DNA of 50,828 nt from NCBI GenBank assembly GCA_039649225.1, contig JBBWZU010000651.1:1-50828 (forward strand), written 5' to 3'. This DNA is from Hyphomicrobiales bacterium. Lineage in GTDB: Bacteria; Pseudomonadota; Alphaproteobacteria; Rhizobiales; Xanthobacteraceae. Positions 5,368-42,073 of this stretch are shown here, in pieces; the stretch's first letter is position 1, and each line of letters begins with the position of its first letter. The notes under the pieces were generated by a model, which saw nothing but the letters and a program-made list of their open reading frames with translations, was not told where the DNA came from and did not search any database. The position numbers were made by a program, and so were the translations under genes.

Positions 5368-6141
5368 TCATCGTGCGGCGCGGCCGCCGATTTCGTTGGG
5401 GTCGAGTTCCTGGCTCTCATGTTCCAGATGCAGATAACTGATGTTGAACATCGCGACTTCCTTCAGCCGCTCGAGGTCCGGAATAGTCAGTTCCTTTCCG
5501 CGTAGGACGATGAGATTTTGACTCCGCAATTCCCGCAGCGTCCGGTTCACATGCACCGTCGACAGGCCGGTCGCCTCTCCAAGATCGCTTTGCAGCAAAG
5601 GGAATTCGCAACGGTTCCGACGCGTTCGACCGATGACGTCCAATTTGATGAAAAGTTCGCAGAACAGGTGCGATATGCGCTCCAGCGCGGTTCGCTGACC
5701 AACGTTCAGCGTCCATTCGCGCTGGACGGCCATCGCGACAAGCGTATCCCACCAGAAGGCTTGCGCGATGCGAGGATGCTGAGAGGTCACATGTTCAAAC
5801 TTGTCCCGCGTGATCTCGGCATACGTAAGCGGTGTCAGCGCTGCGATTGTGTGATCCATTTCCCGCAGAATATAGATATTCAGCTCGCACAGATCGCCCG
5901 GAAGAAAGAATGAGAGGATTTGTCGCCGCCCATCTTCGAGCATTTTGGTGCGGCACGCCCATCCGGACAGGATCACCTTGAGCGTCTCAGGATTGTCGCC
6001 CTCACGCGCGACGTCCTCTCTGCCGCCGATCTTCTGAATTCTCTCTTGAACCAACTTGTCGAGCGCGCGCTCGTCCTCCGCAGACAGCCGAACGAATTTT
6101 TGCAGCTTCCGGATCAGAGGGGTCTCGGCTCCCATGTCCAC
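5368..6141 (-). CDS. Crp/Fnr family transcriptional regulator
   Basis: cNMP-binding-like beta-roll plus a C-terminal HTH (GLSTVHVNRTLRELR). There is no N-terminal Cys cluster, and the recognition helix is not the E..SR type. Confidence 0.85.
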   Translation of the reverse strand: MDMGAETPLIRKLQKFVRLSAEDERALDKLVQERIQKIGGREDVAREGDNPETLKVILSGWACRTKMLEDGRRQILSFFLPGDLCELNIYILREMDHTIAALTPLTYAEITRDKFEHVTSQHPRIAQAFWWDTLVAMAVQREWTLNVGQRTALERISHLFCELFIKLDVIGRTRRNRCEFPLLQSDLGEATGLSTVHVNRTLRELRSQNLIVLRGKELTIPDLERLKEVAMFNISYLHLEHESQELDPNEIGGRAAR

Positions 6142-7087: not shown

Positions 7088-7101
7088 TTGATCACCGTCA
7101 A
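7088..7101. promoter_or_regulatory. FixK/FNR-type box TTGA-N6-TCAA (ttgatcaccgtcaa)
   Basis: Perfect half-sites, intergenic, centred about 126 bp upstream of ATG 6969. Confidence 0.55.
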
Positions 7102-7436: not shown

Positions 7437-7982
7437 TCATTGCGGATCGAAGGGAGAATTCGGGCTGGCGCTCGGAGACGTGGGTGGGGATTGTTGGAGA
7501 AGCTGAGACTTGCGCTCGCGGCTGTCCTGATCCCGAACCAGCCAGTATACGCAACCGAGTGCCAGGATGGCCGCAGCCAATGCGAACAGGTGCAGCGCGT
7601 CAGTCACGGACATATCAAGGATCAACAATTTTCTGACGATAGCGAGCAGCGCGATCAGAACAACTGTGCGAACCTGCACAACGCTATCGCGGCGCTTCGC
7701 GACGACCAGCAAGGATCGCTTGAACTCGAGTGCGATGATCACCGTAAAGATCATTCCGAACAACGCCTGGAATACCGCATTGTCAGTCGGGTCGAAGTCC
7801 CGCGATGCGATTATGCCGGCGAGAATTTTCAATACGAGATTCCAGACCGCGAGCGCGACGATGAGCGCTATCAGCCCCGTCAGGATCAAGATGACGGCAT
7901 GCTCAAATTTTTCGTAGGCCGTCAGCAGCCCCCACGCGCCGAGTGCGCTGGCAAGCTCACCCTCTCCTTGATCCGATGCCAT
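7437..7982 (-). CDS. psiE: PsiE-family (phosphate-starvation-inducible) membrane protein
   Basis: ATG 7982 has GAGGA about 7 nt upstream. Four hydrophobic helices and a PsiE-like core (IIALEFKRSL...VRTVVLIALLAIVRKLLILD). Confidence 0.65.
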   Translation of the reverse strand: MASDQGEGELASALGAWGLLTAYEKFEHAVILILTGLIALIVALAVWNLVLKILAGIIASRDFDPTDNAVFQALFGMIFTVIIALEFKRSLLVVAKRRDSVVQVRTVVLIALLAIVRKLLILDMSVTDALHLFALAAAILALGCVYWLVRDQDSRERKSQLLQQSPPTSPSASPNSPFDPQ

Positions 7983-8005
7983 CGCAGGTCCTCGTTGCAA
8001 CTACC

Positions 8006-8842
8006 TCAAATGGCCGGCCTGACCACTCCTTTTTGCCGCGGTACCGGCAAATATTCCACACCGCCGGCCTGCTGGCGGATGGGCTGCGGATAGAGCTTCA
8101 TCAATTCGAGAACAGAAGCCGGAATGTTGGTGCTCACGGGCAACCCAAGTTCTTTGGCAGTCGATGGGAAGATCGGATAGTCGTGCGTCCACGTTCCGGT
8201 GGAGAGCTTCTCCGCCAGCGCGCTTGCCTTATCTTCCGGCATCCGCCCCTGCAGTAGTTCTGATGCAGCTTGCTTTATCTGCGCGATGGCTTTGCGGCCG
8301 ACATCGGCCTGGATCAGGGTTTGATCATCAACCCTGGCGATCGGCTTTGCCTCCGCCACCTTGATGAGCGAGGCCGCCGGCGATTGGCCGACCTGCGGAT
8401 CAATCGGCCCGAGCACCGCATGCTTGGACATGACGATCTCATTGGCGGCGAGTGAAATGAGAGTCCCGCCCGACATCGCATAATGGGGCACGAAGGCCGT
8501 GACCTTCCCCTTGTGCTCGCGGACTGCCCGCGCGATCTGCAGCGCAGCGAGCACAAGCCCGCCCGGTGTGTGCAAGATGATGTCGATCGGAATGTCGTCG
8601 TCGGTCATCTGGACCGCGCGCAAGACATCTTCCGAGTCGTTGATATCGATATAGCGCACGAGCGGGAAACCGAGGAACCGCATCGTCTCCTGCCGATGCA
8701 CCAGCAGAATGACACGCGAGTTCCGCTCGCTTTCGATCTGGGCGATCTTGCGGGCGCGCATGGCGTCGTTGAGGCGCTGCCGCAGCACGGGCTGAAGCGC
8801 TGAAAAGATGAAGAATAGCCAGAAGAGATCGCCGATTGACAT
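8006..8842 (-). CDS. SDH-family Clp-fold membrane serine protease (DUF114-like)
   Basis: N-terminal TM segment LFWLFFIFSALQPVL, a ClpP/SppA-like fold with the serine motif HYAMSGGTLISLAA, and GAGGAGG upstream of ATG 8842. Confidence 0.7.
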   Translation of the reverse strand: MSIGDLFWLFFIFSALQPVLRQRLNDAMRARKIAQIESERNSRVILLVHRQETMRFLGFPLVRYIDINDSEDVLRAVQMTDDDIPIDIILHTPGGLVLAALQIARAVREHKGKVTAFVPHYAMSGGTLISLAANEIVMSKHAVLGPIDPQVGQSPAASLIKVAEAKPIARVDDQTLIQADVGRKAIAQIKQAASELLQGRMPEDKASALAEKLSTGTWTHDYPIFPSTAKELGLPVSTNIPASVLELMKLYPQPIRQQAGGVEYLPVPRQKGVVRPAI

Positions 8843-8869
8843 GACAAGCCTCCTCGCGTGAGCAGGGGT

Positions 8870-9610
8870 TCATGGCCGGCCCGATGTGTCGAAGCCGAGA
8901 ATGCCTTCGTCGGGATAGTAGGCGCGGTAGGTCCGTTCGGAACGAAGCAGCACGGGTCCAAGGACTAGTCCGGCAAGGAAGCCCCCGATATGAGCCCACC
9001 ACGCGACGCCGCCGCCTGTCGATGTCATCAGCGTCTCGGTGGCGCCCTGCAGCACTTGCAGAACGAACCAGAGACCGGCGAACACGAGCGCCGGTATCTC
9101 GAAGAACAGCGGAATGAAAATGATCGGCACCAGCACGATCACGCGAGCGAATGGGAACAGACGCGCAAAGCAGCCGAGTACGCCTGCGATGGCTCCCGAC
9201 GCGCCCAGGGCCGGCACCGTGGATGTTGGATTGAAGACAGCGTGCGCAAGGGCAGCCGCGACTCCACAGCCGAGGTAGAAGGCCAAATAGGGGCCGTGAC
9301 CGAGCCGATCCTCGATCGTCGGGCCAAACAGCCACAGCATCCACATATTGAGAATGAGGTGCAGCCAGCCGCTGTGCAGGAACATCATGGTGAAGAACGG
9401 CAGGTAGTCGAGCAGCGCCGTAGGAACATCGCCATAGGCATCAGGCGCGAAGTATCGCGCCGGGATGAGCGCGAGAGAATAAAGGAATTCTTCAAGCTCG
9501 GTGCGGCTGAGGCTGATTTGAAACAGGAAGATCAGTGCATTCGTTAGAATGAGCCACCATGTCACGATCGGCGCGTGGCGGGTCGGCACGGTGTTGCGGA
9601 TCGGGAACAT
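8870..9610 (-). CDS. Rhomboid family intramembrane serine protease
   Basis: Polytopic protein with the catalytic GASGAIAG motif, the HIGGFLAGLVLG motif, and MFLHSGWLHLILNMW. Confidence 0.85.
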   Translation of the reverse strand: MFPIRNTVPTRHAPIVTWWLILTNALIFLFQISLSRTELEEFLYSLALIPARYFAPDAYGDVPTALLDYLPFFTMMFLHSGWLHLILNMWMLWLFGPTIEDRLGHGPYLAFYLGCGVAAALAHAVFNPTSTVPALGASGAIAGVLGCFARLFPFARVIVLVPIIFIPLFFEIPALVFAGLWFVLQVLQGATETLMTSTGGGVAWWAHIGGFLAGLVLGPVLLRSERTYRAYYPDEGILGFDTSGRP

Positions 9611-9611
9611 G

Positions 9612-9893
9612 TCAGTGCGCCCTTTCCGCCGGCGCCGCGAACTCCGACAGCAGCGCGCGTATCGTCCGGCGCAGTCCATGCATTTGATCGATCAGATCGA
9701 GGATGATAGGCACGGCTTCCTTGTTCACACCCATACCCTGCAGGTCGCGGATCAACTGAGCACGGGCCACGTCGATCTCGGAAAATGAATCGTCCGTTGC
9801 GCCATGCTCCGGCATGAGCCAGCCGGCCTCGATCCATGCATGGAGGACCTCCGTCCTGAGATGCGCGGCGATCAGGAATTCACCCGTCTTCAT
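9612..9893 (-). CDS. cbpM: Chaperone-modulatory protein CbpM-like
   Basis: 93 aa immediately downstream of the cbpA-type gene (stop 9896, ATG 9893). MerR-like fold typical of CbpM. Confidence 0.65.
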   Translation of the reverse strand: MKTGEFLIAAHLRTEVLHAWIEAGWLMPEHGATDDSFSEIDVARAQLIRDLQGMGVNKEAVPIILDLIDQMHGLRRTIRALLSEFAAPAERAH

Positions 9894-9895
9894 GG

Positions 9896-10810
9896 TCAAG
9901 CCCCCATGGCGCGGCGCTGATTGCCGCTGTAATTGCTGGACTTGGCTGAAGCCCACTGCCCGATCAGCGTCTCGAGCTCCGGGTCGCGCTTCTCGGGAAG
10001 CATGATCTTGAGCGTGACATACTCATCTCCCGAGGTGCCGTTCGGGCGCGGAACGCCGCGACCTTTCAGCCGCAGTACAGTCCCGGTGTTGGACCATTTC
10101 GGCACCGTCATGGTGACTGTGCCGGTCGGCGTCGGCACGATCACTTTGCCGCCGAGCACTGCGTCGCGCAGCGGAATCGGCAGTTCGACGTGGATATCGT
10201 CGTCCTTGCGGCGGAAGAGGGGGTGCGGACGAACCTTGATCTCGATCAGCGCATCGCCCGGCGGGCCGCCACCCAGGCCGGGCCGGCCTTTGCCGCGCAG
10301 CCGCAACACGGTGCCGTCGCGCGAGCCCGGCGGAATGGTGACGTCGAGCGCAGAGCCGTCAGGCAGCGTGATCTGCTTCTTGCCGCCGTTGATTGCCTCG
10401 AGGAAATCAAGTTCGAGCTGGTAATGCGCGTCCGGTCCACGCATGCGAAAGCTGCCGCCACGGCCCTGCCGGCCGAATATGTCCGACAGGATATCTTCGC
10501 CGGCGAAATCTGCGAAGCCGGCATCGCTGGAATACTGAGAATCACCGTCTGCAAAATCCCGGTAGTAACGCTGCCGCGGTCGCTCCTGACCGGAGGCGTC
10601 GATCTCGCCGCGATCGAAGCGGGCGCGCTTGTCGGAGTCGCTCAGCAGATCATAGGCAGCGGAGACGTCCTTGAACTTCTCCTCGGCCTGCTTGTTGCCG
10701 GGATTGAGATCCGGGTGCAGCTTCTTCGCAAGCTTGCGGTACGCTTTCTGAATGTCTCCTGGCGAGGCGTCTTTCTTGACGCTCAACGTGGTGTAGGGGT
10801 CGGCGGCCAT
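9896..10810 (-). CDS. cbpA: DnaJ-family co-chaperone of the CbpA type (J domain and C-terminal domains, no zinc finger)
   Basis: J domain with HPD (KKLHPDLNPGN). There are no CxxCxGxG repeats, and DnaJ C-terminal beta-domains are present. Confidence 0.85.
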   Translation of the reverse strand: MAADPYTTLSVKKDASPGDIQKAYRKLAKKLHPDLNPGNKQAEEKFKDVSAAYDLLSDSDKRARFDRGEIDASGQERPRQRYYRDFADGDSQYSSDAGFADFAGEDILSDIFGRQGRGGSFRMRGPDAHYQLELDFLEAINGGKKQITLPDGSALDVTIPPGSRDGTVLRLRGKGRPGLGGGPPGDALIEIKVRPHPLFRRKDDDIHVELPIPLRDAVLGGKVIVPTPTGTVTMTVPKWSNTGTVLRLKGRGVPRPNGTSGDEYVTLKIMLPEKRDPELETLIGQWASAKSSNYSGNQRRAMGA

Positions 10811-10822
10811 GATTTCACCTGA

Positions 10823-11389
10823 TCACGGCTGTGCGCTGAGTTGCTGCGTGTTATCGTCAGATGCTGGCGCTTCCGACCGTCGTTTCACAACGGCGACACG
10901 TGCGGGGCGAAGCAGCCGGTCATGGATCATGTAGCCGTCCTCCATCACCTCGGCGACAGTTCCCGGCTCGCGCTTCGGATCGTCGATCTCCATCACCGCC
11001 TCGTGCAGCGCGGGGTCGAATGGCGCGCCAAGGGCCTCGATCTTGCGGACATCGAACCGCTCGAGGGCCTGCGTCAGCATCCGCTCGGTCGACCGCACGC
11101 CTTCCAGCAGTGCCGCATCCTCGACTGATTTGACTGGATTGCGCTCGGCCGTATCGATTGCGCGACGCAGATTGTCGACGACGCTCAGCATCTCGCGCGC
11201 AAAATTGGCGATCGCGTATTGCCGCATTTCATCGAGCGAGCGCTCAGTACGCCGGCGCGTATTCTCGGCGTCCGCCAGCGCCCGCATCAGCCGGTCGCGC
11301 AGCGACTGGTTCTCGGCCAGCAAGGTCGCGGGATCGACCGCTTCCGTCGCAATGCGCTCGTCTTCAGCGTGGTGCACGCCTTGCGCCAT
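10823..11389 (-). CDS. grpE: Nucleotide exchange factor GrpE
   Basis: 188 aa from ATG 11389. GrpE signatures RALADAENTRRR and GYMIHDRLLRPARVAV. Confidence 0.85.
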   Translation of the reverse strand: MAQGVHHAEDERIATEAVDPATLLAENQSLRDRLMRALADAENTRRRTERSLDEMRQYAIANFAREMLSVVDNLRRAIDTAERNPVKSVEDAALLEGVRSTERMLTQALERFDVRKIEALGAPFDPALHEAVMEIDDPKREPGTVAEVMEDGYMIHDRLLRPARVAVVKRRSEAPASDDNTQQLSAQP

Positions 11390-11405
11390 GTTCGACCTCG
11401 TCCAT

Positions 11406-13991
11406 TCAGGCGGCTTGTGCGAAGGTATTGCCGTTGATGACGAGCCGGCCATCCCGCACTGTAACCTTGACGGTATCTCCATCCTTGATCGCGCCGGACA
11501 GCAGCATCGTGGCGAGCGGGTTTTGCAACTCGCGCTGAATGACACGCCGCAATGGCCGCGCACCGTACACCGGGTCGTAGCCAGTATTGCCGAGCCAGAT
11601 CTTGGCCTGCTCGTCGATGTCGAGCGTGATCTTGCGATCGGCCAGCAGGCGTTGGAGATGCCGGAGTTGGATATCGACAATCCGCTTCATCTCGTTGCGG
11701 CCGAGCCGGTTGAACAGGATGATCTCGTCAAGGCGATTAAGGAATTCCGGCCGGAACGAGCGGCGTACCACGTCCATCACTTGATCGCGTGCGGCCTCCA
11801 CCGGCTGGCCTTCGAGCAATGCCGCAAGATATTCCGAGCCGAGATTGGAGGTGAGCACGATGATGGTATTGCGGAAATCGACTGTGTGTCCCTGGCCGTC
11901 GGTCAGTCGCCCGTCGTCAAGGACCTGCAACAGGATGTTGAAGACGTCATTGTGTGCTTTCTCGACCTCGTCGAACAGGATCACCTGATAGGGACGTCGC
12001 CGCACCGCTTCGGTCAGCGAGCCGCCTTCCTCGTAGCCGACATAGCCGGGAGGAGCACCGATCAGACGGGCCACGGCGTGCCGTTCCATGTATTCGGACA
12101 TGTCGATGCGCACCATCGCCTGCTCGTCATCGAACAGGAACGTGGCAAGCGCCTTGCACAATTCGGTCTTACCGACGCCGGTCGGTCCAAGGAACAGGAA
12201 CGAGCCGATCGGCCGATTGGGATCCTGTAACCCGGCGCGGGCACGCCGCACTGCGTCGGCGATGACCGCGATGGCGTGGTCCTGGCCGACCACGCGCTCG
12301 CGCAGCTTGTCTTCCATATGAAGCAGCTTTTCGCGTTCGCCTTCCATCATCCGGGCGACCGGAATGCCTGTCCAGCGCGAAACGACCTCGGCGACTTCCT
12401 CGGCGGTGACCTCCTGCTTGAGCATCTGGCCGCTGACCTTCGAGGCATCCGCCAGCCGGCGCTCGAGTTGCGGGATCACCGAATAGAGAAGTTCACCGGC
12501 CCGCTGCAGGTCGCCGCGGCGCTGCGCGATCTCAAGCTCGTTGCGCGACTGATCGAGCTGCGCCTGCAGGCGCTTGACTTCCTCGAGCTTGTCCCTCTCG
12601 GCCTTCCATTTTGCAGTCAGCTCGGCGGAGCGCTGTTCCAGATTTGCCAGTTCCTGCTCGAGGGTCTTAAGACGGTCCTTTGAGGCTTGGTCCGTCTCCT
12701 TTTTCAGCGCCTCGCGCTCGATCTTGAGCTGGATGATGCGGCGGTCGAGCTCGTCGATCTCTTCCGGCTTGGACTCGATCTCCATGCGCAGCCGGCTGGC
12801 GGCCTCATCGATCAGATCGATGGCCTTGTCGGGAAGAAAGCGGTTGGTGATGTAGCGGTTGGACAGCGTCGCGGCGGCGACGATGGCCCCGTCGGTGATG
12901 CGTACGCCATGATGCAGTTCGTATTTTTCCTTCAGGCCGCGCAGGATCGAGATTGTCTCCTCGACCGTCGGTTCGCCGACGAACACGGGTTGGAAGCGGC
13001 GGGCGAGCGCCGCATCTTTCTCGATGTTCTTGCGGAACTCATCCAGCGTGGTCGCGCCGATGCAATGCAGTTCGCCGCGCGCCAGCGCGGGCTTGAGCAT
13101 GTTCGAGGCGTCCATCGCGCCTTCGGCTTTGCCCGCACCGACCAGCGTGTGCAGCTCGTCGATGAACAGGATCACATCACCGGCCGCGGCGACCTCCGAA
13201 AGCACCGCTTACAGCCGCTCCTCGAACTCGCCGCGGTACTTTGCGCCGGCAAGCAGCGCGCCGAGATCGAGCGAGAGCAGCCGGCGATCCTTCAGGGTGT
13301 CGGGCACATCGCCGTTGACGATGCGCTGCGCGAGGCCTTCGACGATCGCGGTCTTGCCGACGCCGGGTTCTCCGATCAGCACCGGGTTGTTCTTGGTGCG
13401 GCGCGAGAGCACCTGCACGGTGCGGCGGATCTCCTCGTCGCGGCCAATGACCGGATCGAGCTTGCCCTGGCGTGCTTCCTCGGTGAAGTCTCGCGTGTAT
13501 TTCTTCAGCGCCTCGTAGTTGCCTTCGGCTGTGGCACTCTCCGCTTTGCGGCCCTGGCGGATGTCGGCGATCGCCTTGTTGAGGTTTTGCGCCGTGACGC
13601 CGGCACGCTTGAGAATGTCCGCAGCCGTTCCCTTGGACAGCGCCAGCGCCAGCAGCATGTATTCGACGGTCACGAAAGCATCGCCGGCCTTCTCGGCCAG
13701 TTGCTCGGCCTGATCGAACAGGCGCGCGGTCTCCGGCGCCATATAGACCTGGCCGGCGCCGCTGCCTTCCACCTTGGGCAGCTTCGCCAGTTCCACATCG
13801 ACCGCTTGGACAACTTGCGCCGCCGTCGCACCGGATGCATCGATCAGATTGGCGGCGAGCCTGTCCTCGTCATCCAGCAGCGCCTTCAACACATGCAGCG
13901 GCGTGAACTGCTGGTGGCCGCTGCGCATTGCAAGCGTCTGCGCCGACTGGATCAGCGTCTTCAAGCGGTCAGTATATTTCTCGATCTGCAT
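11406..13991 (-). pseudogene. clpB: ClpB disaggregase interrupted by one in-frame TAA (ORF pieces 13209-13991 and 11406-13205)
   Basis: The two ORFs are in the same frame and read ...[36 protein letters not shown]. Both AAA+ modules, the coiled-coil M-domain and the N-domain are intact. The stop (13209-13211) lies between Walker A (GEPGVGKT) and Walker B of NBD1, where ClpB proteins have Lys. Confidence 0.85.
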
Positions 13992-14045
13992 CGCTCATCT
14001 CCTCCAGGCGTTCCATGACCCGTGGACTGCGGCCGCAGATCCCCG

Positions 14046-15959
<1,914 letters not shown>

Positions 15960-16027
15960 GGTGCAGCTCCTGATGTGCGGGTGTCGTGGCGTTTATTGGC
16001 GCTTGCCTCTATCGGCGAACGAAGTTT

Positions 16028-16069
16028 GGGACGTGCTACTTGGGGGGAGGAGGGCCAGAAGCACGTCCC
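16028..16069 (-). terminator. 10-bp inverted repeat (gggacgtgct...agcacgtccc) between hsp20 and dnaK
   Basis: Perfect 10-bp arms with a 22-nt loop, 24 nt after the hsp20 stop. No U-tract follows, so it may be an attenuator or processing hairpin rather than a full terminator. Confidence 0.3.
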
Positions 16070-16092
16070 AGAAGGTCACCGCGCCGGGGGGA

Positions 16093-16587
16093 CTACGCGG
16101 CGTCCTTGACCTCGATCTTCTTTGGCTCGGCCTTCGCGGGTTTTGGAATGGTCAGTTTCAGGACCCCCTTCGACATGACGGCCTGGATGCTCGCCGGATC
16201 CACGCCGGGCGGAAGCTGGATCACGCGGTAGAACACGCCGTAGCTGCGCTCGCTGACGTGGTAGTTCTTGTCCTTGTCTTCTTCCTTGGTCTCGACCTTC
16301 TTCTCGCCGCGGATGGTGAGCAGATCGTCTTCGATGGATATATCGACATCCTTGCGCTCGAGCCCGGGTAGCTCGGCCGTGATCTCGATTTCCTTGTCGG
16401 TCTCCGTTACATCGATCGACGGCATGAGGTTGTTCTGGGCGGGTGAGGGCAGCGTACCATAGCCGCCACGGGTGAGATCATCGAACAGGCGATCGATCTC
16501 ACGATGCAGAGATCCAAACAGGCTGACGGGTTGCAGGCGGGTTCCGCCGTTTGTTGAAGAGGAAGGCTTGAGAGCGCTTAAGGGCAT
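16093..16587 (-). CDS. Hsp20/alpha-crystallin small heat-shock protein
   Basis: Alpha-crystallin domain (PSIDVTETDKEIEITAELPGLERKDVDISIEDDLLTIRGEKK...GVLKLTIPK). Confidence 0.9.
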   Translation of the reverse strand: MPLSALKPSSSTNGGTRLQPVSLFGSLHREIDRLFDDLTRGGYGTLPSPAQNNLMPSIDVTETDKEIEITAELPGLERKDVDISIEDDLLTIRGEKKVETKEEDKDKNYHVSERSYGVFYRVIQLPPGVDPASIQAVMSKGVLKLTIPKPAKAEPKKIEVKDAA

Positions 16588-16593
16588 GACAGT

Positions 16594-16625
16594 CTCCGTT
16601 GCTTTCTTGCTCCGTTGCTTTCTTG
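16594..16625. repeat. Perfect 16-bp tandem duplication in the hsp20 leader that duplicates the Shine-Dalgarno sequence
   Basis: ctccgttgctttcttg occurs twice in tandem (mRNA sense CAAGAAAGCAACGGAG x2). The proximal GGAG is 6 nt from ATG 16587. A third partial copy (tttcttgcg) lies at 16633-16641. Confidence 0.85.
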
Positions 16626-16695
16626 CGAATTATTTCTTGCGCGCTATTCGTGCAGGCGCGGCTATCCGCGTCCCATTGAAACACTCGGCGCCCCA

Positions 16696-17349
16696 TCACG
16701 GCGCCACGACGATCCGGTCTTCCACCTTGGTGACGCCCGGCGCCGACCACGCGACGCGCTCGGCTTCCTCGCGCTCGATCCACGAGCGTACCGTGCCCTT
16801 CAGGATCACCGCGCTGCCTTCTGTCTCGACAACGATGCGATTGGCGTCGACTTCGGCGTTGCGCTTGAATGCCTCCTGGATCTTCTTCTTGATCTCGGCA
16901 GGCTCGGCGCGCGGCTTGAGCACGATCGAATTGGTCACGCCCTTTATGCCCTTGATGCGTCGCACTGCGGCCTCGGCGGTGTTCTTCTGATATTGCCACT
17001 CCACCTGGCCTTCCAGCGTCACCCAGCCGTTCTTGACCACGATCTTGATGTTTTCCGATGAAATCGGGAGCAGGCTCTTCATCGCTGCGACGGCATCACG
17101 CGCAATTTCCGGATCCGGCCGCTCGTCGATCGCGGGCAATCGCACCTCGAGATCATTGGCAACGCCGCGGACACCCGCGACGCGTTTGGCCGCGGATTCC
17201 GCCTCGTATTTATCGGTGTAGCTTTTTACAAATCCCGCCAATGTGACCACACCGTCCTTGACCGACACGGCGATATCGCTCGGATCGAGATCGGGATTCC
17301 ATTGCAGTTCTTCCTTCACGTTTCGCTCAATGTCGCGGTCTGATGTCAT
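16696..17349 (-). CDS. BON-domain protein (three BON repeats, OsmY-like, no signal peptide)
   Basis: Three repeats of the pattern V.V.V..G.VTL.G.V......AE.A...V.GV..V.N.I. Confidence 0.8.
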   Translation of the reverse strand: MTSDRDIERNVKEELQWNPDLDPSDIAVSVKDGVVTLAGFVKSYTDKYEAESAAKRVAGVRGVANDLEVRLPAIDERPDPEIARDAVAAMKSLLPISSENIKIVVKNGWVTLEGQVEWQYQKNTAEAAVRRIKGIKGVTNSIVLKPRAEPAEIKKKIQEAFKRNAEVDANRIVVETEGSAVILKGTVRSWIEREEAERVAWSAPGVTKVEDRIVVAP

Positions 17350-17408: not shown

Positions 17409-17422
17409 ATGACAGCCATCAA
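17409..17422. promoter_or_regulatory. Degenerate FixK-type box (atgacagccatcaa, 1 mismatch)
   Basis: Centred about 66 bp upstream of BON ATG 17349. Seven of the 8 fixed bases match. Confidence 0.3.
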
Positions 17423-23649: not shown

Positions 23650-26094
23650 TCAGGCGGATTGCGCCGCCTGACGGTCCGCGAACGCCGCCGGCGGTCTCGT
23701 GGTTGCGCCGCTCTCATCGCGCTTATCGTCCGGAACCAGAGCCGCCGCTATCGCATCATCGACCCGTTCGAGCCACACGAAGCGGACCTGTTTGCGTGCC
23801 GCTTCAGGGACGTCCTCCAGGTCTTTCCTGTTTCGCGCGGGTAGAAGAACCGTCGTGATGCCGGCGCTCGCCGCCGCCAACACCTTCTCCTTCACGCCGC
23901 CGATCGGGAGCACGAGACCGCGCAGGGAAATCTCACCGGTCATCGCCGTATCGCTGCGCGCCACGCGATTGGTCAGCAACGAGACGAGGGCGGTGAACAT
24001 GGCAACGCCTGCGCTCGGCCCATCTTTCGGGACCGCGCCGGCCGGCACATGGATGTGGATGTCCGATTTCTCGAACAGGATGGGATCGATACCGAGCTCG
24101 ATCGCGCGCGCTTTCACCAGTGACAGCGCCGCCTGGGCGCTTTCCTTCATCACCTCACCGAGCTGCCCGGTCAGAATGAGCTTGTTGCGGCCGGGAATGC
24201 GCGTGGCCTCGACGAACAGGATGTCGCCACCGACGGGAGTCCAGGCAAGGCCGGTCGCCACGCCTGGAACGCTGGTGCGCATGGCGATCTCGTTCTCGAA
24301 CCGGCGCGGGCCGAGGATTGCCGGCAAGGCGGTGCTATCGATGTGCATGCGGTTGCAGGTTCCTTCTGCAATCCGCATCGCGACGTGACGGCAGATCGCG
24401 CCGATCTGCCGCTCGAGATTGCGCACGCCGGCTTCACGCGTGTAATCGCGGATCATCGTGCGGATGGCGTCTTCGGTGATCTCGCATTGCTCTGGCTTCA
24501 GGCCGGTCGCGGCAAGCTGGCGCTTGAGCAGATAGCGCTTCGCGATTTCGATCTTCTCATCTTCCGTGTAGCCGGGGATCTCTATCACTTCCATGCGGTC
24601 GCGGACCGGCCCCGGAACGGTGTCGAGCACATTGGCGGTCGCGATGAACATCACTTTCGAGAGGTCGAAGGTAACCGCCAGGTAGTTGTCGCGGAATGTC
24701 GCGTTCTGCTCCGGGTCGAGGACCTCAAGCAGCGCGGACGAAGGGTCGCCGTGAAAGCCGGCGCCGAGCTTGTCCACTTCGTCGAGCATCATCACGGGGT
24801 TGCGTGTGCCTGCCTTGCGGATCGACTGGACGATGTTGCCGGGCAAAGCTCCGATGTATGTGCGCCGATGACCGCGAATCTCGGCTTCGTCATGCACGCC
24901 GCCGAGGCTGAGACGCGCGAATTTGCGGCCCGTTGCGCGCGCGATGCTCTGGCCGAGCGAGGTCTTGCCGACGCCCGGCGGTCCGACGAAACACAGGATC
25001 GGGCTTTTGCCCTCCGGATTGAGCTTGCGTACCGCGAGATATTCGAGAATACGACGTTTCACTTTGGGAAGACCGTAATGGTCCTCATCGAGGATGTGGC
25101 GCGCCTCGGCGATGTCGATGCTGTCGGGATCGAGCTTTGACCACGGAAGCTCGATCAGCCAGTCGAGATAGTTGCGGATCATTCCGTATTCCGGAGAAGC
25201 CTCCGGCATACGCTCAAGTCTCTTAAGCTCCTTCAGCGCCTGATCCCGAGCCTCCTTCGGCATTCCGGCTGTTTCGATCTTCTCGCGCAGTTCCTTGATT
25301 TCGGCGCTCTTGTCGTCGCCTTCGCCCAACTGCTTCTGAATTTGCCGAAGCTGCTCGCGTAGAACGTGCTCGCGCTGCTGCGACGACAGCGATTGTTGCG
25401 TCTGCTCGCCGATCGCCTTCGAAAGCTTGAGGACCTCGACCCGCTGCACAAGCAGCGACAGCACCTTGTCGAGCCGCTCCTTGATGTCGAGCGTTTCAAG
25501 AATGTCCTGCTTCTCGGCCGGCCGGACATCGAGAAGACCGGCGACAAAGTCGGCCAGGGCCGATGGTGAATCCAAGCTATCGATCGCGCCCGCAAGTTCG
25601 GCCGGTACATTCTGCAGCAACCCGATCGCCTCGCGTGCGCGCTCACGCAGCAGGTTCGTACGCGCCTCGATGTCGGGCGTCACGACTTCCGCCGCGCTAA
25701 TCTCCTCGATGCGCGCAACAAGGTGGGGATATCCCGAGATGAATTCGATCACGCGAAAGCGCCGCACGCCGCGGCAGATCACGTGATGCGTTCCGTCCGC
25801 CGCCGTGATGTAGCGGAGAATCTGCGCGCTCGTTCCGATCTTGTGCAATTGCTCCGGCGTCGGATCCTCGATCGCGGAGTCGGTCTGCAGCAATACGCCG
25901 ATCAGCTTTTCCGCGTGAACCGCTTGTTGTGCGGCCGCGATGGATGCGGGGTGCCCGATGGTCAGCGGCAGCATCATCCCGGGAAACAGCACCGCCTGGC
26001 GCAGCGGCAGGATGATCAGCGCGTCCTGTGGCAGCGGTGGCGCCGCCTTGTTCTGGCCGGAACCGGTCTCCTGTCGTTCCGTTGCATCCGCCAT
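23650..26094 (-). CDS. lon: ATP-dependent Lon protease (LonA)
   Basis: Lon N-domain, Walker A GPPGVGKTS, catalytic PKDGPSAGVAM, and GGVKEKVLAA. ATG 26094 is 8 nt after the upstream hsp20 stop. Confidence 0.95.
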   Translation of the reverse strand: MADATERQETGSGQNKAAPPLPQDALIILPLRQAVLFPGMMLPLTIGHPASIAAAQQAVHAEKLIGVLLQTDSAIEDPTPEQLHKIGTSAQILRYITAADGTHHVICRGVRRFRVIEFISGYPHLVARIEEISAAEVVTPDIEARTNLLRERAREAIGLLQNVPAELAGAIDSLDSPSALADFVAGLLDVRPAEKQDILETLDIKERLDKVLSLLVQRVEVLKLSKAIGEQTQQSLSSQQREHVLREQLRQIQKQLGEGDDKSAEIKELREKIETAGMPKEARDQALKELKRLERMPEASPEYGMIRNYLDWLIELPWSKLDPDSIDIAEARHILDEDHYGLPKVKRRILEYLAVRKLNPEGKSPILCFVGPPGVGKTSLGQSIARATGRKFARLSLGGVHDEAEIRGHRRTYIGALPGNIVQSIRKAGTRNPVMMLDEVDKLGAGFHGDPSSALLEVLDPEQNATFRDNYLAVTFDLSKVMFIATANVLDTVPGPVRDRMEVIEIPGYTEDEKIEIAKRYLLKRQLAATGLKPEQCEITEDAIRTMIRDYTREAGVRNLERQIGAICRHVAMRIAEGTCNRMHIDSTALPAILGPRRFENEIAMRTSVPGVATGLAWTPVGGDILFVEATRIPGRNKLILTGQLGEVMKESAQAALSLVKARAIELGIDPILFEKSDIHIHVPAGAVPKDGPSAGVAMFTALVSLLTNRVARSDTAMTGEISLRGLVLPIGGVKEKVLAAASAGITTVLLPARNRKDLEDVPEAARKQVRFVWLERVDDAIAAALVPDDKRDESGATTRPPAAFADRQAAQSA

Positions 26095-26102
26095 AATCGA
26101 TC

Positions 26103-26510
26103 TCAGTCTTTCCGGGTGAGGCTCAAGACAAGGCACCCACCGACAAGCTCCGACTGCTCAAGCGTGAACGGACCGGCCGGCAACCGGATCTGGCGCTCGA
26201 ACCGGCCATACGGAATCTCCAGACGATGGATTGCCGCGCCGCGCGCAATCGTGGGCAAGGGCCGCGACCCGGCAATCGTCAGTCCACCCGCGCCGATGGA
26301 AACCTCGATCCGCTCCGGGACAACACTGGGCAGCGCCGCGATGATCCAAAGCTGCTCGCCCGTCTCGAACATATCGACCGGCGGTTCCCAACTTGCGGCT
26401 TGCGGCCGTGCGAAGCCCGGCCGGAAGAACTGACGATGCAGGCGATCCGCCCGCTCCAGCATGTCGCAGGCTTCGCTCCACATCCGGCCTCTGGGGTCTT
26501 CGGCAAACAT
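26103..26510 (-). CDS. Hsp20/alpha-crystallin family protein (divergent)
   Basis: 135 aa with an alpha-crystallin-like core (PPVDMFETGEQLWIIAALPSVVPERIEVSIGAGGLTIAGSR...GCLVLSL). Confidence 0.7.
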   Translation of the reverse strand: MFAEDPRGRMWSEACDMLERADRLHRQFFRPGFARPQAASWEPPVDMFETGEQLWIIAALPSVVPERIEVSIGAGGLTIAGSRPLPTIARGAAIHRLEIPYGRFERQIRLPAGPFTLEQSELVGGCLVLSLTRKD

Positions 26511-26573
26511 CGATTGTCTCCGTACTGGCGACGCCGCGCGGCATGGATGCTGAGGCCAGGCTCAAATCGACAC

Positions 26574-27113
26574 TCAGATCGACACATGGGCACGCAGTTG
26601 CTGTTCAATCGCAGCACCGAGATCCTCGAATGCGTAAGTGCCGTCGTGCCGCGCGCCGTTGATGAAAAAGCACGGCGTGCCGTTGACGCCGGAACGCACG
26701 CCACTGAGGAAATCCGCCCGCACCTTGGGTGCGAAGGTCCCGTTGATCAGCGCGTCGCGCAGCTCCAGTTCGGAGAGGCCGAGCAGGGAGGCGAGCGCGA
26801 GATAGAGCGGCAGGCCGAGGCGATCCTGGTTGTCGTAAAGGCCATCATGCATGTCCCAGAATTTGCCGTTCGCACCGGCGAATTCGGCGGTCTGCGCGGC
26901 GGATTCGGCATTCGGGTGCGCCTGGCTCAGAGGAAAGTGCCGGAAGACAAATCGCAGCCGCTGCCCGAAGTGCTTCTGGATCAGCTTGACGATTGGATGC
27001 GCCAGTCCGCAATACGGGCACTCATAGTCGCCGTATTCCAGCAGCGTGACCGGCGCGTTCGCCGGCCCCTTGGCGTGATCATGCGGCGTGACTGGAACTT
27101 TGAGCGTTGCCAT
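26574..27113 (-). CDS. DsbA-family thiol:disulfide oxidoreductase (no signal peptide seen)
   Basis: CPYC active site in a thioredoxin fold. ATG 27113 has AAGGGA upstream. Overlaps the 3' end of the peroxiredoxin ORF by 35 nt. Confidence 0.75.
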   Translation of the reverse strand: MATLKVPVTPHDHAKGPANAPVTLLEYGDYECPYCGLAHPIVKLIQKHFGQRLRFVFRHFPLSQAHPNAESAAQTAEFAGANGKFWDMHDGLYDNQDRLGLPLYLALASLLGLSELELRDALINGTFAPKVRADFLSGVRSGVNGTPCFFINGARHDGTYAFEDLGAAIEQQLRAHVSI

Positions 27114-27591
27114 GCGCATTCCCTTGTTTTGCCATTCTCTCGAGGGCATCGAGGATGCCGTCGGCGCCGGGATTGACCGCGATCGGTGAGCAATAGCTCC
27201 AGAAGATCACGCCCTTTTGGTCCAGAACGAACAATGCGCGTTCGCAGACGCCTTCGCCCTCGCGATAGGCGCGATACGACTTTGCGACCGCGCCCTTCGG
27301 TTCGAAGTCGGACAGCAACGGAAAATGCAGGCGGCGATCACGCGCGAAGGCCGCATGACACCACACGCCGTCGACCGAGAGGCCAAGCAGCTCAGCGCCG
27401 TACCTGCGGAACTCGGGAAGGATCTCGTTGTAAAGAGTCACCTGATCGCCACAGACGGGACTCCAGTCCGCCGGATAAAGCGCAAGGATCACCGGCTTGC
27501 CCCTCAGATCATCGAGGGTGAGCAGTTGATCGGGTGTGACGTGCAGCCTGAAATTGGGGGCGGCCGTTCCTGCGGTTAAAAGTTGAGCCAT
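27079..27591 (-). CDS. Peroxiredoxin (AhpC/TSA family)
   Basis: LYPADWSPVCGDQ peroxidatic-Cys motif in a thioredoxin fold. Confidence 0.85.
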   Translation of the reverse strand: MAQLLTAGTAAPNFRLHVTPDQLLTLDDLRGKPVILALYPADWSPVCGDQVTLYNEILPEFRRYGAELLGLSVDGVWCHAAFARDRRLHFPLLSDFEPKGAVAKSYRAYREGEGVCERALFVLDQKGVIFWSYCSPIAVNPGADGILDALERMAKQGNAHGNAQSSSHAA

Positions 27592-27670: not shown

Positions 27671-27684
27671 TTGATGACTGTCAA
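27671..27684. promoter_or_regulatory. FixK/FNR-type box TTGA-N6-TCAA (ttgatgactgtcaa)
   Basis: Perfect half-sites in the divergent intergenic region. Centred about 87 bp upstream of prx ATG 27591 and about 236 bp upstream of ATG 27914. Confidence 0.65.
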
Positions 27685-27913: not shown

Positions 27914-28666
27914 ATGAACATAAGGAATGCTTTGACGACCACAGAAAACCCGGCTGGCCAAGCGAATGCCAAAACACCCTCACCCCAATCTCATTTGAAA
28001 AACCTCGATTCCCTCGCCACGGTCGTCCCGTGTCGCCGCGGGCAGGAAATCTGCGGCCAAGGCCGCCCCGCCGAGACATGGTATTGCGTCCTGTCGGGCG
28101 CGGCGCGGCGTTACGTCATCAGGCTCGATGGCCGGCGCCAGATCGTCGATCTGTTGCTGCCCGGGGACTGTTTCGGCTTTTCCGCCGGCGGCGACTATGA
28201 TTTCGCGGTCGAAGCGGTGACGGACGGAACAGTCGTCGCAGGTTACCCGCGGCGGCGCGCCGAGATGCTGGCGGATTCCGATCCGCGCGTCTCACGGGAG
28301 ATCCGCCAGGCTGCCTTTGAAGCGCTCTCGCGGCTGCAATCCCAGCTTCTTATTGTCGGCCGGATCACCGCGCTGGAGAAGGTTGGCTCGTTTATTCTCG
28401 AAATGGCAGCGCGCCTGTCGCGCGCGAGCAGCAGAAGGGTCGCGTTGCCGGTCTCGCGCTACGACATCGCGGATTATCTTGCAGTCTCCGTCGAGACCGT
28501 CAGCCGCTCACTCACCGATCTCAAGCATCGCGGCGTCATCCGCATGTCGGGGACGCGCACACTCGAGATCATGGATCGCGATGCGCTCGAGGATGGAGAG
28601 TCGCTCGCTCATTTGGCGCCGGCCCAAAACGCGGGGCGTTATCATGACACAGCCCAGCTACGCTAA
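27914..28666 (+). CDS. FixK-like Crp/Fnr family transcriptional regulator
   Basis: ATG 27914 has GAGAGG upstream. The HTH YDIADYLAVSVETVSRSLTDLKHRGVI carries the E..SR recognition motif of the FNR/FixK class. There is no N-terminal Fe-S cysteine cluster. Confidence 0.8.
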   Translation: MNIRNALTTTENPAGQANAKTPSPQSHLKNLDSLATVVPCRRGQEICGQGRPAETWYCVLSGAARRYVIRLDGRRQIVDLLLPGDCFGFSAGGDYDFAVEAVTDGTVVAGYPRRRAEMLADSDPRVSREIRQAAFEALSRLQSQLLIVGRITALEKVGSFILEMAARLSRASSRRVALPVSRYDIADYLAVSVETVSRSLTDLKHRGVIRMSGTRTLEIMDRDALEDGESLAHLAPAQNAGRYHDTAQLR

Positions 28667-29479: not shown

Positions 29480-30106
29480 TCAGCTTTGCGAACTCTCGGG
29501 GGCAAACCGTGCCATGACGGCGAGGCGCACCGCTTCGCCCAATTGTCTGACTCCGAGGCGGTCCATCATGCGTGCCCGATGGACCTCGATGGTCCGCACG
29601 CTCAAGCCGAGGTCAAAGGCAATGATCTTGTTAGACCGACCGGCCACCAGGGCATCGAGAACTTCGCGCTCGCGCGGGCTGAGCGCGGCGATCCGCTGCG
29701 CCGCCTCCTCGGCCTCCGGAAGGCGGTCGGACAGCAGTGTCCGCGTGAACGCATCTTCGATGGCGGCGAAGAGAGTCGTATCGTCGAAAGGTTTCTCGAT
29801 GAAATCGACGGCTCCAGCCTTCATTGCCTGCACGGCGCTCTGAACGTCGCCCTGGCCAGTTATGATGATCACCGGGAGGGCGATGCCCAGATCATTCATG
29901 CGACGTTGTAACTCAAGCCCGTCCATATCGGGAATTCTGATATCCAGCAGTACGCAACCGGGCGCCAGGTCCGGCGCGACATTCAGGAACGCCGCCGGTG
30001 TTTCGAACGAGACGGCGCGAAAGCCGGCCGCATCAAGCAGTTGTTCGAGAGAGCGGCGAACGGCCGCGTCGTCATCCAGAACGTAGACCGTGCGCTCAAT
30101 CGGCAC
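29480..30106 (-). CDS. FixJ/NarL-type response regulator
   Basis: Receiver domain (VLDDD...LLDIRIPDMDG...K) plus LuxR-type HTH (SPREREVLDALVAGRSNKIIAFDLGLSVRTIEVHR). GTG start at 30106 overlaps the kinase stop. Confidence 0.85.
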   Translation of the reverse strand: MPIERTVYVLDDDAAVRRSLEQLLDAAGFRAVSFETPAAFLNVAPDLAPGCVLLDIRIPDMDGLELQRRMNDLGIALPVIIITGQGDVQSAVQAMKAGAVDFIEKPFDDTTLFAAIEDAFTRTLLSDRLPEAEEAAQRIAALSPREREVLDALVAGRSNKIIAFDLGLSVRTIEVHRARMMDRLGVRQLGEAVRLAVMARFAPESSQS

Positions 30107-40876: not shown

Positions 40877-42073
40877 ATGCTTCACATCGACATCCCGACA
40901 TTGACCGAGTTTAAGGCGCTGGCCGCGATGAGAGGCGATGCCTGCGTGTCACTCTATCTGCCGGCGTCGCCGTTCCCTCATCAGGCGCGCGCCAATCGCG
41001 TTGCGTTCAAGGACATCGCCAAAACAGCCCTTGCCCAATTGCACGAGGCCGGCTTCGACAAGCGCCGGCTCGCGGCCTTGGAGCAGCGGTTCGATCATTT
41101 GGCCGGCGCTGACGAAGACAATGTCCAGGACCAGGATCATATCCGCAAGCTGCAGAACAGGAAGCCAAGCGAGGTGGACGCGTTCTGGATCAACCAGACA
41201 AATGGTCTGGGAGTGCTGGCAACGCCCGAGACACTGCGCACGTTCCGCCTGCCGTTCGCTCCAAAACCGCTCGCCGAGGTCGCAAACCGCTTTCATCTGA
41301 CGCCGCTCATTCGCGTCATGACCTCGCCGCACGACGTGTTCGTGCTGGCTTTATCGGAGGAAAGTGTACGGCTGGCGCATGTGTTCGCGAACCTGGCCGC
41401 GATCGAAATCAAGGTTCCGAATTTGCCGCATACGGCCGCGGAGGCGACGCGGCGCCCGTCGATCCATGTGCGCGCGCCGCGCGGCCACCTGCAAAATCTC
41501 GAAGGCGAGAAAGTGCTGCTGCAGAAATACGCGCGCCAGGTGAATCAGGCCGTCTGCGCCGCGCTTGCCGGGCAGGCGACGCCATTGGTGCTGGCGGCCG
41601 CCCAGCCGATCGCCTCGATCTTCCGTTCCGTGAGCTGCTATCCGCGTCTGCTCGACGAGGGGATACAGGACGCCGGCCACATGAGCATTGCGCAGCTCGC
41701 CGATGCGGCGCTTCCGATCCTTAATCGGCTTCATGGCCGTGAGTTGAAGGCGATCATCGCGCGCTACGATGAACTCAAGCCCCGCCGCGCCACCACGGAT
41801 ATCTCCTATGCGTCGCACGCCGTAACTGCAGGGGCTCTCGAAGAGCTGTTGGTCGATCTCGATGCGGTGGTCCCCGGCTTGGTGAGCGACTACGATGGCA
41901 GCGTCACCTATGCGACGTCCGACGACGCGGAAACCTATAGCGTCGTGGATGAGATCGCGCGCCGCGCAGTTTGCTCCGGCGCGCACGTGCTCGGCGCCCG
42001 GCGTGATGAACTGCCCGACCGAGCCTCGCTGATTGCAATCCTTCGCTATCAGTTCGGGACAATCGCGGGCTAG
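40877..42073 (+). CDS. eRF1/Pelota-like protein (bacterial baeRF-type family, tentative)
   Basis: ATG 40877 has GAGGAG upstream; 398 aa. The C-terminal part ...AVTAGALEELLVDLDAVVPG...VDEIARRAVCSGAHVLGARRDELPDRASLIAILRY mirrors the eRF1/Pelota domain-3 ending (..GAV..LLV.....GA.V..V......GI.AILRY). No GGQ motif was seen. Confidence 0.55.
   Translation: MLHIDIPTLTEFKALAAMRGDACVSLYLPASPFPHQARANRVAFKDIAKTALAQLHEAGFDKRRLAALEQRFDHLAGADEDNVQDQDHIRKLQNRKPSEVDAFWINQTNGLGVLATPETLRTFRLPFAPKPLAEVANRFHLTPLIRVMTSPHDVFVLALSEESVRLAHVFANLAAIEIKVPNLPHTAAEATRRPSIHVRAPRGHLQNLEGEKVLLQKYARQVNQAVCAALAGQATPLVLAAAQPIASIFRSVSCYPRLLDEGIQDAGHMSIAQLADAALPILNRLHGRELKAIIARYDELKPRRATTDISYASHAVTAGALEELLVDLDAVVPGLVSDYDGSVTYATSDDAETYSVVDEIARRAVCSGAHVLGARRDELPDRASLIAILRYQFGTIAG

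Follow-up and report, generated by a model that had tools for sequence, protein, structure and literature searches.

A chaperone and membrane-protease gene string behind a FixK/FNR-type box in an uncultured member of the Xanthobacteraceae, a probable accessory quality-control operon

Accessory islands for protein quality control are already an established concept. The closest described system to the locus studied here is the tLST/LHR/TLPQC island (PMC8290217), which was discovered by way of heat and chlorine resistance and whose orf14 encodes a PsiE-like protein. We have analyzed a string of ten genes for chaperones and membrane proteases carried by contig JBBWZU010000651.1 of assembly GCA_039649225.1 (Hyphomicrobiales bacterium, Xanthobacteraceae). 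The whole stretch of 50,828 nucleotides was studied, and is referred to below as the window. We consider it rather probable that the string is a self-contained accessory protein-quality-control operon of uncultured Xanthobacteraceae, set in a larger stress island that would be under the control of a FixK/FNR-type regulator.

Further points of reference are provided by individual genes of such a string. The housekeeping layout of alphaproteobacteria places dnaK before a class-A dnaJ and hrcA before grpE, exemplified by the dnaK-dnaJ genes of S. meliloti and the hrcA-grpE genes of Sphingomonas. In Rhizobium leguminosarum the FnrN-dependent small heat-shock protein (sHsp) gene RLV_1399 has a TTGA-N6-TCAA anaerobox and is induced under micro-aerobic conditions (PMC11784457). 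The physiological roles of bacterial rhomboid proteases are still poorly defined (PMC8899591), and no biochemical study of the SDH family of serine proteases (PF01972/NF047768) was found in the literature searched.

Gene content and conservation of the string

The genes were identified from the open reading frame (ORF) table in combination with Pfam and NCBIfam scans. These confirm the arrangement proposed by a first-pass annotation of the window, that is, ten consecutive genes on one strand, the minus strand, in the order now given. The first encodes a BON-domain protein of 217 aa (16696-17349). NCBIfam OsmY-like models match it below cutoff, its homologues on sister contigs contain PF04972, and a signal peptide was not seen by eye. 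It is followed by an sHsp of the Hsp20/alpha-crystallin family (164 aa, 16093-16587; PF00011, 91 bits) and by DnaK, the Hsp70 (637 aa, 14046-15959), which scores 1045.7 bits against the equivalog model NF001413, above the cutoff of 648. ClpB, an Hsp100 with an M-domain that matches TIGR03346, occupies 861 codons (11406-13991) in a frame that is interrupted. There follow the nucleotide-exchange factor GrpE (188 aa, 10823-11389; PF01025, 161 bits), a class-B (CbpA-type) J-protein (304 aa, 9896-10810) containing PF00226 and PF01556, and a MerR_2 or CbpM-like protein of 93 aa (9612-9893; PF13591, 33.7 bits against 29). The string is completed by a rhomboid intramembrane serine protease (246 aa, 8870-9610; PF01694, 122 bits), an SDH-family Clp-fold serine protease (278 aa, 8006-8842; NF047768, 404 bits against a cutoff of 250; PF01972) and a PsiE-family membrane protein (181 aa, 7437-7982; PF06146, 97 bits).

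By ORF coordinates the successive gaps from BON to PsiE are 108, 133, 54, 16, 12, 2, 1, 27 and 23 nt, in agreement with gene calls on near-identical contigs. Independent calls of this kind, on near-identical metagenome contigs, supplied the starts of GrpE, CbpM, rhomboid and PsiE. The gaps quoted earlier for grpE/clpB (16 nt), cbpA/cbpM (2 nt) and cbpM/rhomboid (1 nt) are exact. The earlier assignment of a CbpA-type J-protein with a CbpM-like partner is likewise upheld: the J-protein has the J and C-terminal domains and no zinc finger, and the MerR_2 gene begins 2 nt on, which is the layout of E. coli cbpA-cbpM. The CbpM-like protein is 43% identical to a P. zucineum protein that PGAP names 'chaperone modulator CbpM'. 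The J-protein does not reach the cutoff of the E. coli CbpA equivalog (NF007618; 164.5 bits vs 403), and both GrpE and the J-protein lie below every NCBIfam equivalog cutoff.

The first-pass annotation had read the string as a complete sHsp-Hsp70-Hsp100 set. This stands for the module as a type, which is intact in sister contigs, but not for the window itself, where clpB carries a premature stop and no uninterrupted frame is present. Codon 261 is an in-frame TAA (13209-13211, minus strand), such that ClpB ends after 260 residues, within nucleotide-binding domain 1 and between Walker A and Walker B. Two contigs with 99.5-99.7% identity to the window (L001 and L002) have AAA (Lys) at this codon, and encode an intact ClpB of 861 aa. 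The two halves of the window ClpB span TIGR03346 positions 1-254 (348 bits) and 256-852 (1040 bits), and the canonical ClpB model fits the whole length better than do the ClpG/K, ClpA and ClpV models; this is a ClpB of the canonical, DnaK-dependent type. Because the TAA interrupts clpB in the window, the bi-chaperone set is complete only in the sister contigs. The TAA is either a nonsense allele of very recent origin or a base or sequencing error. If the allele is real, the strain would have lost the disaggregase step.

We surveyed the gene neighborhood in relatives, a check suggested by the first-pass annotation. One genome per GTDB species was scanned with the SDH protease. A metagenome-assembled genome (MAG) of the Xanthobacteraceae (L009) has the same order from BON through SDH, with proteins 74-91% identical to those of the window, and a second MAG (L010) has part of the module. 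DnaK was used as a query against 5.8 billion proteins; among the matches listed, 120 are at least 85% identical, nearly all of them from soil-type metagenomes. The contigs of seven DnaK homologues, ranging from 93% down to 85% identity, were inspected. BON-sHsp-DnaK-ClpB is present in all seven and the whole string through SDH in five, with PsiE after SDH in four of those. The recurrence of the module in L009, in L010 and in the inspected contigs excludes a local accident. One variant (L096) differs in being without the rhomboid-SDH pair only, which fits the idea of the protease pair as an insertable cassette. At positions 14109-15063 of this long-read contig (ENA ERZ25039510 contig_49033) a CbpM-like gene is followed directly by PsiE; several genes of the contig look frameshifted.

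Neither a class-A (zinc-finger) dnaJ nor hrcA is found in the window cluster or in nine module loci, and the housekeeping layout is not seen at any of them. In a small DnaK tree that did not include a Xanthobacteraceae housekeeping DnaK, the module DnaKs form one clade with 100% bootstrap. A megablast search of the whole string against plasmids did not find a close copy. The match of a Sphingomonas parapaucimobilis 'plasmid' dnaK proved on inspection to be an ordinary dnaK-dnaJ plus hrcA-grpE region.

Directly after the sHsp stop codon there is a GC-rich hairpin with a CCUCC-containing loop (16028-16069, minus strand, extending to ~16107). It has a folding energy of -22.6 kcal/mol (z = -4.5), and is kept in all eight module loci, where 6 of the 13 pairs show compensatory changes. 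The hairpin may be a leaky terminator or an mRNA-stabilizing element, and read-through into dnaK may be attenuated. A resemblance to 6C-RNA or Scr3202, given by a permissive Rfam scan of the sHsp region, was rejected; the score is below threshold (35.5 bits vs 47), and since the matches are absent from four other module loci we take them as a chance likeness arising from C-rich loops. On the other side of the sHsp gene, directly upstream of its ATG, a 16-nt unit CAAGAAAGCAACGGAG is repeated twice in tandem (~16594-16626, minus strand). This doubles a Shine-Dalgarno-like GGAG, and is present as a single copy in L009.

A FixK/FNR-type box and the regulators around it

Upstream of the BON gene lies the sequence TTGATGGCTGTCAT (17409-17422, minus strand), a FixK/FNR-type box with one mismatch to TTGA-N6-TCAA that is a predicted class II activator site. 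The box had been pointed out before as the only promoter-like element, and it proves to be conserved. Its center lies 66 nt upstream of the BON ATG, at promoter distance, and the sequence aaaaaTTGAY-N4-GTCAT followed by GG occurs upstream of BON in all seven module loci for which upstream sequence is available, within flanks that are divergent. The last base of the box is a non-consensus T in six of these, and the other (L090) has a perfect palindrome in the same place. In several loci a -10-like TAnnnT can be seen by eye ~22-28 nt past the box.

We also looked for other promoters and RNA elements. The sigma-32 consensus CTTG-N16-18-CYTATNT has no match in the window, and a search of Rfam at gathering thresholds, including ROSE, gave none; the earlier statement that the string lacks a sigma-32-type promoter and a ROSE leader is thus borne out. 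The EcfG promoter consensus GGAAC-N16-17-CGTT has three matches in the window, none of them in the cluster. Allowing up to three mismatches, the HspR operator HAIR (CTTGAGT-N7-ACTCAAG) matches inside coding sequence only, with no intergenic occurrence. A consensus scan for sigma-70 promoters and terminators performed no better than on shuffled sequence.

The box upstream of BON is not isolated. The window contains 14 perfect TTGA-N6-TCAA boxes where 0.5 would be expected, located at 5070, 7088, 27671, 32262, 33357, 38282, 38316, 40756, 40799, 42123, 43554, 45466, 47667 and 50382. Nearly all precede a candidate ORF start by ~20-130 nt (with two of the preferred starts the distance is 125 or 236 nt), and the contig has the appearance of a dense FixK/FNR regulon island. 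A candidate activator for the boxes is encoded at 27914-28666 (plus strand). This FixK-like Crp/Fnr regulator has an ETVSR recognition helix and matches the NF050806 FixK model best, at 139 bits against a cutoff of 300, and a perfect box (27671-27684) lies upstream of its own gene. Close by are a FixJ-like response regulator (29480-30106, minus strand; FixJ model, 237 bits vs 255) and a histidine kinase (30096-31823, minus strand) of which the FixL model covers the kinase core only, residues 317-566. The same trio of histidine kinase, response regulator and Crp-family protein flanks the module in L089, L090, L091 and L094. The Crp-family regulator nearest to the module is another protein (5368-6141, minus strand), without the FNR cysteine cluster and the E--SR motif and with the helix TVHVNR. 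It probably reads an operator other than TTGA-N6-TCAA.

The module is surrounded by further stress genes. These encode two DJ-1/PfpI proteins, a DUF2267 protein to whose gene the perfect box at 7088 belongs, an aldo-keto reductase, WrbA, DUF1931, Zn-ADH, DUF5335, a PRC-barrel protein, DUF308/HdeD, a molybdopterin oxidoreductase set, a universal stress protein (USP), a baeRF-family protein and an MMPL transporter. A second quality-control string (23650-27591, minus strand) contains genes for a peroxiredoxin, a DsbA-like thioredoxin, an sHsp-like protein (an ORF of 135 aa) and full-length Lon, and in L089 this Lon string abuts the module, directly upstream of BON. Among the window ORFs examined, which were not all of those present, there is no transposase or integrase. 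The baeRF protein (family 8/11; ~40877-42073, plus strand) stands behind two tandem perfect boxes, at 40756 and 40799, and would be an unusual member of the putative low-oxygen regulon.

The rhomboid-SDH pair, a proposed mechanism and its rivals

The family matches and sequence motifs bear out the earlier claim that two membrane-associated serine proteases and a PsiE-family protein follow the chaperone genes. The HxxxN, GASGA and AHIGG motifs of the rhomboid are shared by 40 homologues, and the catalytic Ser (GxSG) and His are in place. The AMSGGT serine region of the SDH protease aligns with the ASAASAGT serine segment of the P. horikoshii 1510-N/NfeD protease. Its MSGGT motif is retained exactly or almost exactly by 58 homologues, and the protein has the nucleophile serine of the family in addition to passing the family cutoff. 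The catalytic motifs of both proteases are intact. At its N-terminus the SDH protease has a conserved hydrophobic stretch and then basic residues. It is probably a membrane-tethered, SppA/NfeD-like enzyme; because basic residues follow the anchor, the positive-inside rule would have it face the cytoplasm. The anchor (SDH residues 1-20; window 8783-8842) ends in Gln-Pro, which is invariant in the 58 homologues. Rhomboids recognize features such as a motif that breaks the helix where a transmembrane segment ends. Since the SDH anchor ends in the helix-breaking Gln-Pro, the neighboring rhomboid may process this N-terminal anchor, thereby activating or releasing the SDH protease.

The pair is an independent and widespread cassette that is not specific to the operon. 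Homologues of the SDH protease with 62-86% identity are spread over Alpha- and Deltaproteobacteria, Acidobacteriota, Bipolaricaulota, Methylomirabilota, Gemmatimonadota and other phyla. Of the 76 loci where enough sequence precedes SDH, 58 have a rhomboid gene immediately ahead of it on the same strand, at ~9-130 nt. A gene of the ClpB/ClpG family is found no more than 10 kb from SDH in 19 of 80 loci, and either ClpB or an sHsp in 28 of 80; the chance of finding clpB within 20 kb is roughly 0.5%. In Acidobacteria (L064) and Methylomirabilota (L044) a canonical ClpB, accompanied by a CbpA-like gene, is the partner; the partner is ClpG/K-like in Acetothermia/Bipolaricaulota (L054), in an alphaproteobacterial MAG (L021) and in plasmid islands. 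The pair also occurs in other company, lying among housekeeping genes in Desulfobacterales (valS-nadC-rhomboid-SDH-folE2) and beside a thiamine pyrophosphate (TPP) enzyme in Bradyrhizobium.

On Brucella anthropi plasmid p1 (NZ_CP103347.1, 1421-17394; L093), one such island, IS6-flanked and tLST-like, contains the rhomboid and SDH genes together with genes for PsiE, three Hsp20 proteins, MarR, FtsH, a ClpK-like ATPase, a sigma factor, HdeD, an NDUFS4-like protein, TrxC and a cation/proton antiporter. Comparable matches come from plasmids of Agrobacterium, Shinella, Ciceribacter, Paracoccus yeei and Roseomonas.

From the parts of the string we infer a mechanism in which the signal, co-transcription and the relay between the proteases are the conjectural elements. 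The FixK-like activator, encoded ~10 kb away, would bind the box, centered near -41.5, and turn on the string plus ~13 other boxed promoters in the window, in response to low oxygen or to a redox or energy signal related to it. Because of the hairpin behind the sHsp gene, BON and sHsp transcripts would come to exceed those of the genes further downstream. Unfolding proteins would be held and shielded by the sHsp, and perhaps by the BON protein too. ClpB would then be recruited for extraction and refolding by DnaK, GrpE and the CbpA-like protein, with the CbpM-like protein as their modulator. The rhomboid would clip damaged membrane proteins inside the bilayer, and the membrane-tethered SDH protease would degrade the resulting fragments. 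PsiE recurs in islands of this kind, and we assign it no role within the mechanism.

We tentatively extend this to a broader proposal, in which we place distinctly less confidence than in the operon itself. Rhomboid and SDH might constitute a two-step cassette for the disposal of membrane proteins that has repeatedly been wired to an Hsp100, and the Xanthobacteraceae kit might be governed by a FixK-type low-oxygen or dormancy switch and not by a heat-shock sigma factor. If that were so, the intramembrane cut by the rhomboid would be followed by degradation of the fragments by the tethered, SppA/NfeD-like SDH protease, in partnership with ClpB and DnaK here and with ClpG/K in the tLST-like islands. 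The partnership across phyla near disaggregases and sHsps would give both the rhomboid and the SDH families a concrete hypothesis in membrane-protein quality control, testable in cultured carriers of the plasmids such as Brucella anthropi, Agrobacterium, Paracoccus yeei and S. fredii NGR234. We regard the cross-phylum rhomboid-SDH cassette, with its recurrent link to disaggregases, as the most valuable lead to emerge from the analysis.

Several observations weigh against the reading of the string as an accessory operon under FixK/FNR-type control. The clpB gene is broken in the window itself, and the case for co-transcription and for oxygen dependence is drawn from sequence alone. The hairpin and the 133-nt spacer before dnaK, which is ~380 nt in some relatives, may signify a separate promoter for dnaK-psiE. 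The histidine kinase is without the recognizable haem-PAS sensor half of FixL, so the signal may not be oxygen, and as the box keeps its non-consensus last base (TCAT), a different Crp-family regulator could read it. The last two points also fit a general heat or proteotoxic island whose control is unrelated to oxygen, exerted either by another Crp-family reader or by a MerR-like repressor of the HspR type, as do the adjacent Crp-family gene that lacks the E--SR motif and a weak HspR match of the MerR_2 protein. We think this unlikely, given that no intergenic region contains a HAIR-like inverted repeat and that the MerR_2 protein, of only 93 aa, occupies the CbpM position immediately behind the J-protein gene. 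Moreover the window contains the regulator with the ETVSR helix and the perfect FNR/FixK boxes, and the consensus in L090 is perfect in the same place. An independent parallel for FixK-type control is provided by the P. zucineum plasmid, with a boxed dnaK and with FixLJ on the plasmid. The link between the proteases and the chaperones may be loose, since the pair lies among housekeeping genes in Desulfobacterales and is missing from L096. Taken with its position beside the TPP enzyme in Bradyrhizobium, this lends some substance to the idea that the tail of rhomboid, SDH and PsiE is a hitch-hiking cassette with an unrelated job, for example the processing of a specific membrane substrate. It is an alternative to be taken seriously, though on balance improbable: the gaps of 1 to 27 nt tie the tail into the string, the adjacency is kept while DnaK identity ranges over 85-93%, and across phyla the pair is found independently near ClpB or ClpG/K at a frequency far above chance.

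The accessory operon must also be distinguished from a rearranged housekeeping set, in which the organism's only dnaK, grpE and clpB would have been gathered into one operon. A single contig of 50.8 kb, apparently a metagenome contig, is at hand and its DnaK passes the DnaK equivalog model, both of which leave room for such a set. Yet we regard it as highly improbable. Class-A DnaJ and hrcA are found neither here nor in any module locus, GrpE and the J-protein score below all the equivalog cutoffs, accessory stress genes surround the module, and a nonsense clpB allele is tolerated. The P. zucineum plasmid set consists of copies extra to one chromosomal dnaK, grpE and dnaJ, and FixLJ is on the plasmid (PMC2529317, Table 6); the DnaK of S. 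fredii pNGR234b shares only 75% identity with the one encoded in the chromosomal dnaK-dnaJ pair of S. meliloti, from the same genus. The first-pass annotation called the string a dedicated paralogous module. That it is a dedicated and conserved string stands. That it is paralogous, and not the housekeeping set, is well supported but not proven, and we infer it because the distinct DnaK clade is always in module context and never beside dnaJ or hrcA, and because related sets occur on secondary replicons in cultured species that retain dnaK-dnaJ on the chromosome; the sub-threshold scores of GrpE and the J-protein and the tolerated clpB allele add support. Membership of a mobile tLST/LHR heat-resistance island is the least credible alternative, and can be set aside with near certainty. 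The parts list is shared, and tLST-like alphaproteobacterial plasmid islands do carry rhomboid-SDH. However, the Hsp100 is a canonical ClpB and not ClpG/K, a whole DnaK system is present that tLST does not have, transposase and integrase were not seen among the ORFs examined, and YfdX, KefB and a trxC-type thioredoxin are missing, there being just a DsbA-like thioredoxin-fold gene elsewhere in the window.

Comparison with known systems

Full-text literature searches found no paper on the ten-gene string or on the rhomboid-SDH pair. The earlier statement that coupling a disaggregase to these proteases is not a described unit holds to that extent, but it is weakened on two counts: the design principle is known from the tLST/LHR island, and annotated plasmids carry rhomboid-SDH beside a ClpK-like disaggregase.

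Single elements of the string have recognizable counterparts. As in E. coli cbpA-cbpM, a class-B J-protein gene is immediately followed by a small MerR_2 gene; in the window these genes differ in being embedded in a ten-gene string, and CbpM-like inhibition of the J-protein is putative. The actinobacterial dnaK-grpE-dnaJ-hspR operon encodes Hsp70, GrpE, a J-protein and the MerR-family repressor HspR, which binds HAIR. It differs in that no HAIR was detected between the genes of the window, and that the MerR_2 protein of the window is CbpM-like and 93 aa long. With NfeD/1510-N (STOPP) and SppA the window SDH protease shares the alignment of the nucleophile serine and an N-terminal hydrophobic anchor. 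Its Pfam matches include NfeD1b_N, CLP_protease and Peptidase_S49, and among solved relatives the NfeD/1510-N membrane protease is the nearest. It nevertheless belongs to a separate family (PF01972/NF047768), and its partner is a rhomboid, not stomatin as for NfeD/1510-N.

With respect to regulation, the mycobacterial dormancy regulon includes an sHsp, and the boxed chaperone set of the window may be likened to it. In R. leguminosarum RLV_1399 is a single boxed sHsp gene, whereas in the window a whole bi-chaperone and protease string stands behind the box, which would extend the FnrN-driven precedent from one gene to an entire operon. A full Hsp70/Hsp100 system behind an FNR/FixK-type box, without a sigma-32 promoter, suggests that proteostasis in soil alphaproteobacteria may be prepared for hypoxia or dormancy.

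The plasmid sets of cultured alphaproteobacteria are looser forms of the same assembly, with additional Hsp70/Hsp100 copies on secondary replicons, and we found no functional analysis of their dnaK-grpE(-clpB) genes in the literature. The P. zucineum HLK1 plasmid (L007) has dnaK-grpE-clpB, cbpA-cbpM, BON, Crp/Fnr and rpoH genes, with seven perfect boxes in 21.6 kb; boxes lie upstream of dnaK (at 54 nt), BON, a USP gene and the rpoH copy. On the megaplasmid of M. extorquens AM1 (L100, 2340-18063) there are three sHsp genes and PsiE, together with grpE-dnaK-cbpA-cbpM-clpB on a single strand; a perfect box precedes grpE. An A. brasilense plasmid encodes PsiE, USPs, BON, HdeD, GrpE, DnaK, ClpB, Hsp20, PRC, DegQ, DsbA and a redoxin, and 30 kb of S. 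fredii pNGR234b contains two BON and two sHsp genes, CbpA, GrpE, DnaK, PsiE, rhomboid-SDH and a ClpB-like gene. These sets share with the window the BON, Hsp20, PsiE, USP, CbpA-CbpM and Crp/Fnr genes, and those of P. zucineum, AM1 and A. brasilense have FNR/FixK boxes upstream, as at the window. They differ in gene order (dnaK-grpE-clpB or grpE-dnaK-cbpA-cbpM-clpB), in being dispersed over 20-30 kb, and in that rhomboid-SDH is absent or distant, A. brasilense having DegQ instead. Their DnaKs are 73-76% identical to that of the window.

The tLST island shares with the window its sHsps, an Hsp100, PsiE-like and small MerR-like proteins and proteases of the membrane or periplasm, and has the same character of an accessory 'xenologue' island; the tLST-like plasmid islands of alphaproteobacteria, such as that of B. 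anthropi p1, share the rhomboid-SDH pair as well. Peculiar to tLST are a stand-alone ClpG/ClpK with no DnaK, GrpE or J-protein, the proteases FtsH, HtpX-like and DegP, and mobile flanks. The tLST core dna-sHsp20-clpG/clpK is not found in the window, where the Hsp100 is ClpB, and neither are mobile flanks, to judge by the ORFs examined. Membership of tLST/LHR is rejected for the lack of ClpG/K and of such flanks and for the presence of a full DnaK system, and the likeness survives as an analogy only. Peculiar to the window are the canonical ClpB with its own Hsp70 system, rhomboid with SDH, and the FixK/FNR box. The operon is a compact, differently regulated relative of the known accessory quality-control islands.

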